38,185 nucleotides of DNA from a virus (taxonomy: Duplodnaviria; Heunggongvirae; Uroviricota; Caudoviricetes), in IMG/VR virus record IMGVR_UViG_2671181094_000002; one strand, 5' to 3'. The translations under genes and the position numbers were made by a program. The notes beneath the pieces are model-generated. The model was not told the DNA's origin. It was given only the letters and a program-made list of their open reading frames with translations, and searched no databases. Shown one piece after another: positions 15,638 to 35,336 of this stretch. Positions within the stretch are counted from its first letter, which is position 1. Each line of letters begins with the position of its first letter.

Positions 15638-16117
15638 TCATCGAAGGCATTGCGTCCTGATATATTCCTGAAGCGTTCTCAGTGCTGTCTGGTCTCTGAT
15701 GATTCCGTCCCGGATACCGAGAACGTTTCGTCCAGCAACTGGAGAGAGTTCGACGGTGGCATCATTGCCCATGCCGGAGGCGCTGGAGGTTTCGGCTGAG
15801 GATGGCACAGAGCATTTTCCTTTGACGAGCACCCGACCACCATTATCAAGCTTGCGCCGAAGAGCATCATTTTTAGCTTTCGCATCAGCTAACTCCTTCG
15901 TGTATTTAGCATCGAGTGCATCAGCAGAACGCTGGCGCTGCTGCATGTCAGTAATGGTGGCGGTCGCCTGCTTCAGCTCACTGACTTTTTTATCTCGCTG
16001 TTCTTTGTAGGCGATGGCGTTATCACGGTAATGATTGACCGCCCACGACAGGCAGACGATGATGCAGATAACCAGAGCGGAGATAATCGCGGTTACTCTG
16101 CTCATTGTTGCCCCCAC
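15638..16117 (-). CDS. Rz: Spanin inner-membrane subunit Rz (i-spanin)
   Basis: 159-aa ORF with N-terminal TM segment ([16 protein letters not shown]) and coiled-coil periplasmic region, directly after endolysin gene. Confidence 0.85.
15679..15885 (-). CDS. Rz1: Spanin outer-membrane lipoprotein Rz1 (o-spanin), embedded in +1 frame of Rz
   Basis: 68-aa ORF fully inside Rz; lipoprotein signal with lipobox MVVGC, proline-rich [11 protein letters not shown] as in Rz1. Confidence 0.8.
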
Positions 16118-16599
16118 AAACAGACTTCACGCTCAATCTCACGGCGAGTCATCAGTCCTTTCCATTGATTACCGCCAGCGTATGTCCAGCGCCGTAGCTG
16201 ATCACATGCGCCTTTAATATCACCCTGGTTTATTTTGCGAAGAAGCGTCGATGTTCTGAAATTGCCAGCACCCACGTTGTAGACGAACGAGTAAAGAGCG
16301 CCGCGCGTTGTTTCCGGTATATCGACTTTGATGTACCGGTTAATTTGTCTGGCGACAGTGGCAAGGTCTTTATTCAGGAGGGCTTTGCACTCTGCTTCGG
16401 TATACGTTTTACCGGGAATGATGTCTTTTCCTGTATGCCCGTAACATACAGTCCATACACCAACTATGTCTTTGTAAGGATTATGTCTCACACCTTCCAG
16501 ACCATCGTTACCACTTGGGCCAGTGATTAACACAGATGCTATAGCAATAGCCCCGCCACCAATAGCAGCAGCAACAGCTTTTCGTAATGATGGAGGCAT
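16102..16599 (-). CDS. R: SAR endolysin (phage 21 R-type lysozyme)
   Basis: 165-aa ORF; N-terminal Gly/Ala-rich signal-arrest-release segment [20 protein letters not shown] followed by lysozyme catalytic region (E...D...T pattern), like R21 / DLP12 RrrD. Confidence 0.9.
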
Positions 16600-16814
16600 T
16601 ATTCACCTCTCGCAGCCTTGCGCTTATCTTCTTTAATCTTGAAATAAAGGTTTGTCAGGTACGTCAGCAGGCCAAATACCAGGCTACCCAGCACACCTAT
16701 TGCTGCCCACTGTGAGGGCGTGACTTTATCGAGCAGCTGTAAAAACCAGTACCCGGCACTACCTGCTGAGGTGCCATAGGCGACACCCGTTGTTAACTTA
16801 TCCATGGATTTCAT
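16599..16814 (-). CDS. S: Pinholin S (phage 21 S-type) with dual-start motif
   Basis: 71-aa [29 protein letters not shown]... two TM segments; Met1 and Met4 dual start (holin/antiholin) as in S21 / DLP12 EssD. Confidence 0.9.
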
Positions 16815-17387
16815 AACCCCACCTCGCAGACAAAGCGGGTGTAAATTGAGGGAATACTACGAAACGTAACAGACTCGGAGTCAGTGAATAACTCAGGTAT
16901 TGGGTTATCAGCTAATATCGAGACTCAAAAAATGGAAAAACCCGCTCGACGGCGGGTTTAAGCTGTGTGACGAAGTAACCACTCTTAACAGCATAACCAA
17001 TTTTTTACGTACGTAAACCACTAAATGATATTTGCGAGAATGCTACCGAGTATTGAAAACACCACTACAAATACATAAGCAAATCTCAACAAATAACCAA
17101 CAAATAATTTCCAGCGTTACTTTTAGCCAATTTAAATTGAACCTTCAAATTATAGAGCGCTTATAAATAACAGCCATTAATATAAATTGGCTAATAGATT
17201 TATTTTTATTCAGCCAAGAGCCATGAATAGGATTCGATAGAAAAAAGTTCAGATAAAAATAGAGATCTACTTCACAAATTAAACGAGAAACCAAAACTTA
17301 CATCTTGAAATAATCACATTGATTAGATGAATATTTATCGCGCAGTGACATCATTTTTTAATAATAGTTCAAAAAAAAGGGCTCACG

Positions 17388-18470
17388 ATGAAAAAATTAA
17401 CAGTGGCAATTTCTGCTGTAGCTGCATCAGTACTGATGGCGATGTCTGCTCAGGCAGCTGAAATTTATAATAAAGACAGTAACAAGCTGGATCTGTACGG
17501 GAAAGTTAATGCTAAGCACTACTTCTCCTCTAATGATGCAGATGATGGTGATACTACTTATGCCCGTCTTGGCTTCAAAGGTGAAACCCAAATCAACGAT
17601 CAACTGACTGGTTTCGGTCAGTGGGAATATGAATTCAAAGGCAACCGCGCTGAATCTCAAGGTTCCTCCAAAGATAAAACCCGTCTTGCCTTCGCTGGCC
17701 TGAAATTCGGTGACTACGGCTCCATCGATTATGGCCGTAACTACGGTGTAGCATACGATATTGGTGCATGGACCGACGTTCTGCCAGAATTCGGTGGCGA
17801 TACCTGGACCCAAACAGATGTATTCATGACTGGTCGCACCACAGGTGTTGCAACTTATCGTAACAACGACTTCTTTGGTCTGGTTGATGGCCTGAACTTT
17901 GCAGCTCAGTATCAGGGCAAAAATGACCGAAAAGAAGTAACTGAAGCTAATGGCGATGGTTTCGGTTTCTCAACTACTTATGAGTATGAAGGATTCGGCG
18001 TGGGTGCAACCTATGCTAAATCTGATCGCACTAATAATCAGGTTATCTACGGTAACAACGGTCTGAATGCTTCTGGTCAAAATGCTGAAGTATGGGCAGC
18101 TGGTCTGAAATATGATGCGAACAACATCTATCTGGCCACCACCTATTCTGAAACCCAGAACATGACTGTTTTTGGTAATAACCATATTGCCAACAAAGCA
18201 CAAAACTTCGAAGCTGTTGCACAATATCAGTTCGACTTCGGCCTGCGTCCATCCGTTGCTTACCTGCATTCTAAAGGAAAAGACTTGGGTGTTTGGGGTG
18301 ATCAGGACCTGGTTGAATATGTTGATGTAGGTGCAACCTATTACTTCAACAAAAATATGTCCACTTTTGTTGACTACAAAATCAACCTGATTGATAAGAG
18401 CGATTTCACGAAAGCATCTGGCGTTGCTACCGATGATATCGTTGCTGTAGGTATGGTTTACCAGTTCTAA
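17388..18470 (+). CDS. nmpC: Outer membrane general porin, OmpC/NmpC/Lc family (prophage-borne)
   Basis: 360-aa ORF with signal peptide ...MAMSAQA|[16 protein letters not shown], porin signature and C-terminal VYQF; preceded by 570 bp AT-rich non-coding region and AAAAGGG SD; located between Q and S as nmpC in DLP12. Confidence 0.9.
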
Positions 18471-18632
18471 TTTGATTACTAAAAGATATGTTGTGGGAGG
18501 CTTTGCCTCCCCAACATATAAGTGGCTCCCTCAAGCCACTTCCTTTAGAAGCACAACCTTGCTTCTAACTATACAAACCTTCTGTTATATATTACCCTTT
18601 ATTTTTGGGGGCGTTTCAACGCCCCATTTTTA
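18471..18632 (+). ncRNA. Structured porin 3' UTR; candidate IpeX-like small RNA
   Basis: Three consecutive hairpins (long near-palindrome 18486-18519; aagtggct/agccactt; gaagca/tgcttc) ending in an intrinsic terminator; IpeX sRNA is encoded immediately downstream of nmpC in DLP12. Confidence 0.3.
18606..18632 (+). terminator. Rho-independent terminator of the porin gene
   Basis: gggggcg-tttcaa-cgcccc stem-loop followed by atttttaat. Confidence 0.6.
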
Positions 18633-18658
18633 ATAACTTTTAGTAAATAATTGGCGTA

Positions 18659-19057
18659 TTAATTAGAGTTATTAACAACGATATCCATCTCTAACCGGAT
18701 ATCTAATGCCATTAACATCCCTTCAATTATGCCCTCAGCCTTTTGTAACCTTTTCCCGATATAACCATCAGAGCAGCAATGCTTACCTGCCAGTGACATG
18801 AATGTCATACCGACTACATAATAATCTACTAATAAATCGTGCAAATCGCTGTTGTTCTTTTTCAGACGGGCCATGCACCCGCAAATGATCATCGCGTCAT
18901 CGTCACAACATTGCGGGCGAGATTTTACTTTTGAAGGAATTAATCCCTTAAAACCGGCGGCAATGGACGACCAGGTCACATCTTCATGATTATTAGCCGC
19001 CCACGCTCCCCAACGCTCAAGAACCATCTGAATATCACGCATCAACTTACTCCACAA
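18659..19057 (-). CDS. Q: Late gene antiterminator Q (DLP12 QuuD / phage 82-21 type, not lambda Q type)
   Basis: 132-aa [29 protein letters not shown]... with Cys cluster ([16 protein letters not shown]), upstream of lysis cassette and downstream of rusA/ylcG. Confidence 0.85.
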
Positions 19058-28013: not shown

Positions 28014-28085
28014 GCGCGGCGTTACCGCATACCAATTACGCTTCACTCGAGGCGTTTTTCGTTATGTATAAATAAGGAGCACACC

Positions 28086-28250
28086 ATGCAATATGCCATT
28101 GCAGGGTGGCCTGTTGCTGGCTGCCCTTCCGAATCTTTACTTGAACGAATCACCCGTAAATTACGTGACGGATGGAAACGCCTTATCGACATACTTAATC
28201 AGCCAGGAGTCCCAAAAAATGGATCAAACACTTATGGCTATCCAGACTAA
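28086..28250 (+). CDS. cIII: cIII (FtsH inhibitor protecting cII)
   Basis: 54-aa [57 protein letters not shown] read by hand; below track cutoff. Confidence 0.85.
   Translation: MQYAIAGWPVAGCPSESLLERITRKLRDGWKRLIDILNQPGVPKNGSNTYGYPD

Positions 28251-35103: not shown

Positions 35104-35336
<233 letters not shown>

Follow-up and report, generated by a model that had tools for sequence, protein, structure and literature searches.

Small RNAs of the CpxQ type are freed from the 3′UTR of an mRNA by RNase E and end at the same terminator as that mRNA. IpeX, an RNA of DLP12, is like them in that it uses the terminator of its parent message: transcription from the phage porin promoter yields it within the porin transcript, and it represses OmpC and OmpF. 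Its length is given as 167 nt in a review, and processing from a longer precursor is reported to be required, again as for the CpxQ type. Unlike those RNAs, IpeX may also be active without release from the porin mRNA, the literature holding the 167-nt tail to be active either within the message or once processed. Repression of OmpC and OmpF by multicopy IpeX DNA has been published for the K-12/PA-2 alleles. The RNA has been characterised as Hfq-independent and, according to one review, it works without base pairing, unlike MicF and MicC; another review states that its regulation does not rest on complementarity alone.

We analysed a 38,185-nt stretch of DNA from a tailed phage record (IMG/VR, IMGVR_UViG_2671181094_000002), hereafter the window, which contains the late-control region of a lambdoid prophage. 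The antiterminator gene Q (18659..19042), of the QuuD type and the Q21 family (PF06530 Phage_antitermQ, E 8.5e-54; Q21 in the PDB, E 7.6e-8), lies on the minus strand together with a P21-type holin gene S (16599-16814), the lysozyme gene R (16102-16599) and Rz (15638-16117). The plus strand carries between Q and S a gene for an Lc/NmpC-type porin of 360 aa (17388..18470; Pfam Porin_1, E 3e-152), whose homologues are annotated as porin, OmpC, OmpD or NmpC in related phages and genomes and whose mRNA bears IpeX in its 3′UTR. This order, Q followed by a reverse-oriented porin gene and then S-R-Rz, is common to the window, K-12 DLP12 and PA-2. The porin gene is intact here, as in PA-2, and split by IS5 in K-12.

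The gap of interest (18471-18658) is delimited by the convergent stop codons of the porin gene and Q. The DLP12 and PA-2 sequences, which are identical to each other, match a 251-nt query spanning this region with 95.6% identity (blastn), and 187 nt of the intergenic stretch with 95.2%. Moreover, exactly 167 nt separate the porin stop codon from the end of the terminator U run (18468-18634, plus strand, both ends being predicted from the sequence). Since the identity (about 95%), the 167-nt length and the place directly after an nmpC/lc-type porin gene all agree, the element is one that is already known, the DLP12/PA-2 sequence being the one that defines IpeX. The preliminary description of this DNA had proposed a candidate IpeX-like RNA; by homology, the region is the orthologue of the IpeX locus and not merely similar to it. 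The reserve of the earlier wording may be explained by two negative searches: no Rfam family matches the IpeX region, either at the gathering score or at E values up to 10, and the K-12 RefSeq record lists micF and carries no ipeX feature.

The two forms of IpeX share their architecture. In both, the RNA runs for 167 nt from the porin stop codon to a rho-independent terminator, converges with Q and forms the same hairpins, and the unpaired stretch that precedes the terminator is identical except at 18574. The window allele differs at seven positions inside the RNA, which fall in the 5′ linker, in a bulge, in loops, or in the part of the unpaired stretch that lies 5′ of the nucleotides predicted to pair. 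A scan of the plus strand found no promoter-like site upstream of IpeX. Taken as a whole, we consider it highly probable that the locus is best explained as a self-contained, reversed cassette in which the 3′UTR of an Lc/NmpC porin message is IpeX, with a presumed antisense action on ompC and ompF.

The element is widespread within a narrow host range. We detected it by blastn in 2511 of 5426 complete E. coli genomes (~46%), with a median of one copy per genome, nearly always between a porin gene and quuD, and in 36 phage records as well. Copies were found solely in E. coli and E. albertii. Indeed, chromosomal ompD/nmpC-like porin genes of Citrobacter, Salmonella, Enterobacter and other genera, whose products are 73-80% identical to the window porin, had no detectable similarity downstream. 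Viral contigs, scanned with a seed pattern, gave 126 copies, of which 46 were distinct; all were mosaics of the same few alleles. A reading of the region as a dispersed, REP-like repeat was rejected, as the window has a single copy and the genomes a median of one. One hit (H40) had suggested a module boundary at 18595; as this hit is an IS-mediated truncation, it was also dropped.

The preliminary description had pictured the gap as highly structured, with a 34-bp near-perfect palindrome, two further hairpins and a strong terminator, and each of these is found where it had placed them. The palindrome (18486..18519) forms hairpin 1, with stems of 8 bp and 7 bp separated by a bulge at 18494 and closed by a 3-nt loop; this 34-mer is unique in the window, where shuffled sequences lead one to expect none. 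It is followed directly by hairpin 2 (18520..18541; 18520-18527 paired with 18534-18541, 8 bp, 6-nt loop) and then by hairpin 3 (18545..18568; 18545-18553 paired with 18560-18568, 9 bp, 6-nt loop). The rho-independent terminator of the porin/IpeX transcript (18608..18631) has a stem of seven to eight G+C-rich pairs (18608-18625) that is followed on the plus strand by ATTTTT, its T run covering 18627-18631. The folding prediction that had been proposed as a check gave -58.5 kcal/mol for the plus strand of 18468-18634, against -29.9 ± 3.4 for dinucleotide shuffles (n=200), none of which folded as well (z -8.4); for the minus strand z was -7.9. The only long unpaired part of the predicted IpeX structure lies between hairpin 3 and the terminator, and the 29 nt at 18576..18604 are single-stranded in both the MFE and the centroid structures.

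We aligned eight alleles of the region (window, Chlobot, K-12, mEp332, 4A7, PhiR63_2, a chromosomal remnant and E. albertii), all of which are at least 89% identical. Variation is strongly partitioned among the structural elements. Only 9 of 78 stem positions vary, against 24 of 55 of the other unpaired positions in loops and linkers (Fisher p 3.5e-5), and across the eight alleles 96.8% of the stem cells stay paired. In hairpin 1, E. albertii shows one compensatory change from C-G to U-A and the bulge has moved by one position in 4A7; in hairpin 2 the variation is confined to loop-proximal pairs plus one change from A-U to G-U; hairpin 3 retains its pairing through G-U changes in two alleles; and the terminator combines an invariant stem with a variable loop. 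Covariation over the eight alleles amounted to one compensatory pair, and 173 of 500 shuffles did as well, the similarity of the alleles being too high for covariation to prove the fold. The unpaired stretch 18576-18604 is unpaired and nearly invariant at the same time, with one variable position in 29 compared with the 24 in 55 of the other unpaired nucleotides (p 9.5e-5). The single change, C to T at 18597 in E. albertii, would leave a G-U pair with ompC. In principle, this invariance could also stem from a function on the other strand.

The same alignment bears on two other explanations of the region. A 53-codon open reading frame with a TTG start (18472-18633) could be thought to encode a small protein, and a shorter frame in the matching stretch of phage Chlobot is indeed annotated as a hypothetical protein. 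We rejected this candidate because indels of 1 and 2 nt near 18480 shift the frame between alleles; furthermore, the substitutions track stems and loops and not codons, so that a coding role can practically be dismissed. The second explanation would make the hairpins an insulator only, that is, 3′ structures that stabilise the mRNA and a stop for transcription from both sides, with no role in trans. It would fit the position of the region between convergent genes, the equally strong structure of the two strands and the short T run that follows the palindrome on the minus strand. However, that T run is variable as well as short, and the true terminator works in one direction: the stem 18608-18625 is preceded by TTTATTTTTG, so that the minus-strand RNA continues with CAAAAATAAA. 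The bidirectional terminator envisaged in the preliminary description thus failed this test. An insulator would also leave unexplained both the invariance of the unpaired 29-mer and the published multicopy repression of OmpC and OmpF, and we regard it as improbable.

What could the invariant single strand be for? IpeX nucleotides 5′-AACCUUCUGUUAUAU-AUUAC-CCUUUAUUU-3′ (18576-18604, of which CCUUUAUUU corresponds to 18596-18604) are complementary to positions -31 to -6 of the ompC leader. The partner in the K-12 leader, 5′-AAAUAAAGG-C-AUAUAACAGAGGGUU-3′, includes the Shine-Dalgarno sequence GAGGG, and the predicted duplex consists of 15 bp and 9 bp (24 bp) around a small internal loop. We scored pairing both by seed duplexes and by full-length cofolding. 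The seed duplex with ompC reaches -26.4 kcal/mol, a value that only 4 of 1000 shuffles equalled. As a natural background we used 506 translation-initiation regions from the full set of fetched loci. Leaders of ompC orthologues took all of the first 15 places among these and the best unrelated initiation region scored -22.5, which makes the ompC match the best against some 490 non-ompC initiation regions. This target is itself highly conserved: 5353 of 5426 genomes have an ompC leader with at least 99% identity.

The match with ompF is of a different order. With the register shifted, 13 of the 14 nt of 5′-UUAUAUAUUACCCU-3′ (18586-18599) are complementary to the ompF ribosome-binding site (-15 to -2). 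Taken alone this duplex was no better than shuffles (253 of 1000 as good), and E. coli ompF ranked 30th among the 506 initiation regions, the phage's own porin ranking 221st. Full-length cofolding, in which the IpeX hairpins were kept, gave gains of -21.6 kcal/mol for ompC, -18.4 for ompF, -7.7 for ompA and -6.0 for the phage's own porin; these energies set the reported targets apart from ompA and from the porin encoded next to IpeX, neither of whose leaders is matched by 18576-18604. In the 2006 study of IpeX, OmpA was reportedly unaffected.

To find a complementarity to the ompC and ompF ribosome-binding sites is a fresh point with respect to the literature consulted, where it is unreported or at least contradicted. 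It could have gone unnoticed because a blastn comparison of ipeX with the regions upstream of ompC and ompF returns nothing at a word size of 11, and at a word size of 7 the antisense match is the top hit for both genes.

The complementarity may nevertheless be incidental, and the active part of the RNA, as delimited by the deletions of the 2006 study, might lie elsewhere. If pairing plays no part, the structured RNA would serve to recruit a protein or to titrate it, be it a nuclease or an RNA chaperone, or would have some other, indirect effect, and its three stable hairpins and terminator could form the platform to which this protein binds. The reviews that deny base pairing, the description of IpeX as Hfq-independent and the lack of significance of the ompF match taken alone all speak for such an explanation, which we consider possible though rather doubtful. 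It would have to attribute to coincidence a 24-bp match that covers the Shine-Dalgarno sequence of ompC, is the best against all the non-ompC initiation regions compared and falls exactly within the one long segment of the molecule that is both unpaired and nearly invariant, as well as the energies that separate the reported targets from ompA and the phage porin. This match is also one that blastn misses at the larger word size and finds at the smaller, so that it could have escaped earlier notice.

We are thus somewhat inclined towards direct antisense repression, in which 18576-18604 would pair in two overlapping registers with the Shine-Dalgarno regions of both ompC (24 bp) and ompF (13-14 nt), and would spare the phage's own porin. 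Transcription from the porin promoter would stop at the terminator 18608-18631. The three 5′ hairpins and the terminator hairpin would most likely shield the RNA, and would also keep the 29-nt stretch 18576-18604 single-stranded. This stretch would then pair with the ribosome-binding region of the ompC mRNA (-31 to -6) and, in the shifted register that matches 13 of 14 nt, with that of ompF. Such pairing would block translation, so that the lysogen would trade its own porins for the phage porin, the leader of which is predicted to lack a pairing site. The locus identity of IpeX, its structure, its pattern of conservation, its complementarity to the two leaders and the position of the late promoter homologue (see below) are observed; pairing as the mechanism, processing and the protective role of the hairpins are what we infer from them.

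Since 2006 the RNA has been presented as working through a novel, non-pairing mechanism; by the same antisense reading, which we hold with the same slight preference, IpeX would be an ordinary antisense RNA. It would then resemble MicC and MicF, with a predicted imperfect antisense pairing over the Shine-Dalgarno sequences of the ompC and ompF mRNAs, and it is likewise linked to a porin gene. Unlike these two RNAs, to which it has no Rfam or sequence relationship, IpeX is phage-borne and resides in an mRNA 3′UTR, apparently not in a separate gene, and this one RNA would cover both targets through overlapping registers. In the 2006 abstract, only the effect on ompF reportedly needed Hfq. If the antisense reading is true, the long duplex with ompC and the short one with ompF would explain this difference.

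A temperate phage would rewire the host surface with a single cassette, which adds a porin and, with the tail of the same message, removes those of the host. OmpC is the receptor of PA-2-type phages, and its loss would give superinfection exclusion. Nearly half of the sequenced E. coli carry the sequence, and the loss of porins affects the entry of antibiotics. Should the pairing prove true, a mechanistic puzzle of 20 years would become a testable textbook mechanism.

Where does late transcription start in this phage? In lambda and in the Stx phages the late promoter directly follows Q, and the preliminary description had placed pR′, qut and tR′ between the porin gene and Q (18471-18658) on the Q strand, with a short leader that ends at the palindrome and a Q-modified polymerase that must then read antisense through the whole porin gene. 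The signals on which it drew are present: a TTGAAA hexamer lies in the terminator loop (minus strand, 18619-18614), and on the same strand the palindrome is followed by CTTTTAG. As a promoter element, however, the hexamer is polymorphic, reading TTGAGA, TTGCAA, TGGAAA or TAGAAA in other alleles, and no usable -10 hexamer accompanies it at a distance of 16-18 nt, the best candidates being GGTAAT, which lies at a spacing of 17 nt and does not have the conserved second-position A, and TAATAT, with a spacing of 19 nt. The T run that was to complete tR′ has only four T here, and three to five depending on the allele. A promoter scan detected no sigma-70 promoter on the minus strand of 18471-18658, and the gap bears no similarity to the pR′ region of phages with related Q, a clear homologue of which lies elsewhere, at 17017-16929.

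This homologous late promoter cassette (pR′, qut and terminator; 16929..17017, minus strand) is located beyond the porin gene, between its start and the holin gene. Its match with the annotated segment of 933W and VT1-Sakai that holds pR′, qut and the first terminator covers 17018-16936 with 77-78% identity, and the Q proteins of these two phages are 79-82% identical to that of the window. The -35 element TTTACG (17017-17012), identical to that of 933W and VT1-Sakai, is followed after a 16-nt spacer by the -10 element TATGCT (16995-16990), then by an initial transcribed sequence, TAAGAGTGGTTAC, that is invariant, and by a hairpin (16959-16938) with a T run, which a terminator scan also recovered. 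All porin-carrying relatives have a single copy of the cassette per locus, 98-100% identical and again beyond the porin gene. The pR′ start of strain Sakai, as mapped by dRNA-seq and Term-seq, lies 258 nt upstream of the 3′ end of tR′. Because this mapped start falls 7 nt after the homologous -10 element of VT1-Sakai, TATCAT, it validates the annotated promoter and, by analogy, predicts a start near 16983 in the window.

Since the pR′ homologue lies beyond the porin gene, late transcription most likely need not cross that gene, and the antisense passage that had been thought obligatory is most likely wrong. The order of Q, a reverse-oriented gene and the pR′ cassette recurs in PhiR40_1, and a late promoter in the gap itself now appears very unlikely. 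Between Q and the holin gene, the minus strand has no terminator-like site other than the hairpin 16959-16938, which for this reason is probably the tR′ of this phage; a further minus-strand match (18703-18680) falls within the coding sequence of Q. Polymerase reads through the equivalent hairpin in Stx phages, which gives a 258-nt leader (StxS). The pR′ leaders lambda 6S RNA and StxS therefore have their counterpart, a homologous promoter and first hairpin, at 17017-16929 and not in the gap, and the window shares with the Stx leader only its first ~50 nt, not the 3′ part from which the 74-nt StxS arises.

The comparison with 933W also outlines how the porin cassette is set into the locus. The window Q and 933W Q are 79% identical as far as about codon 120 and then diverge, the tail of the window Q being shorter than the 933W-type tail and of different sequence. 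Homology to 933W is thus lost near this codon (near 18680) and picks up again at 17019. At that point, the minus strand (17005-17019) holds a leftover of 933W-type final Q codons, GGT TTA CGT ACG TAA (AGT TTA CGA TCG TAA in 933W), and this remnant, as far as the alignment can tell, is the mark of the junction of the inserted porin cassette. The opposite end of the porin module is apparently marked by E. albertii, whose homology ends directly after the terminator T run. Because homology to 933W breaks and returns at these two places and the pR′ cassette lies beyond the porin gene, the porin promoter, gene, IpeX and terminator together are best read as a reverse-oriented insert of ~1.65 kb between Q and the promoter on which it acts. 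The common assumption that the late promoter directly follows Q is thereby corrected: in this phage group, an inserted gene separates the two.

Other accessory genes occupy comparable positions. SfII has a reverse-oriented gene immediately before the cassette, in a stretch that was fetched without the Q gene of this phage. The gene in question encodes a hypothetical protein both in SfII (121-1277 of L007) and in PhiR40_1 (240-1283 of L008). In ev087, whose Q is 89% identical, a gene for the lipocalin Blc (1501-2559 of L094) lies reversed after Q, and no pR′ cassette was found within the flank fetched. Accessory genes seem to have been inserted repeatedly at the junction between Q and pR′.

Several smaller features of the locus deserve mention. 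A 20-nt inverted repeat (18627-18646 and 18659-18678), 80% complementary, extends from the end of the terminator T run to the last Q codons, close to the point near 18680 at which homology to 933W Q is lost; it is A+T-rich and may have arisen by chance. At the other end of the porin module, the -35 element of the late promoter is overlapped by a perfect 14-bp palindrome, TTTACGTACGTAAA (17004-17017), which occurs once in the window (0.05 expected); 933W carries at the same place TTTACGATCGTAAA, also a perfect palindrome. This motif may be a binding site for a protein, perhaps a candidate Q-binding element. The 1986 record of PA-2 (L003, J02580) annotates a CRP-binding site at 1067-1087, which corresponds to ~16963-16983 of the window and overlaps the initial transcribed sequence of the late cassette (GTGGTTACTTCGTCACAC); this annotation is probably a prediction.

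The porin/IpeX cassette is a frequent target of insertion sequences, as judged from the loss of flanks in two IMG/VR contigs and from the IS5-family insertions in or beside the porin gene of K-12 and of strain JB2 (L004). In the first contig (L206), the sequence after the terminator of the IpeX copy is replaced by GGTAATGACTCCAACTTATTGA, which we take to be an end of IS1, and in the second (L198) IpeX homology begins only at hairpin 1.

Two Rfam matches elsewhere in the window may be added. The first, to naRNA4, a REP-derived nucleoid-associated RNA, at 35172-35242 (minus strand), scores 60.7 against a gathering score of 59.5 and suggests host chromosomal sequence at this end of the window. 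The second, a full-length match of 88.5 bits to Lambda_thermo, the cIII thermoregulator, at 28073-28131 (plus strand), confirms that the window holds a lambda-like early left operon.
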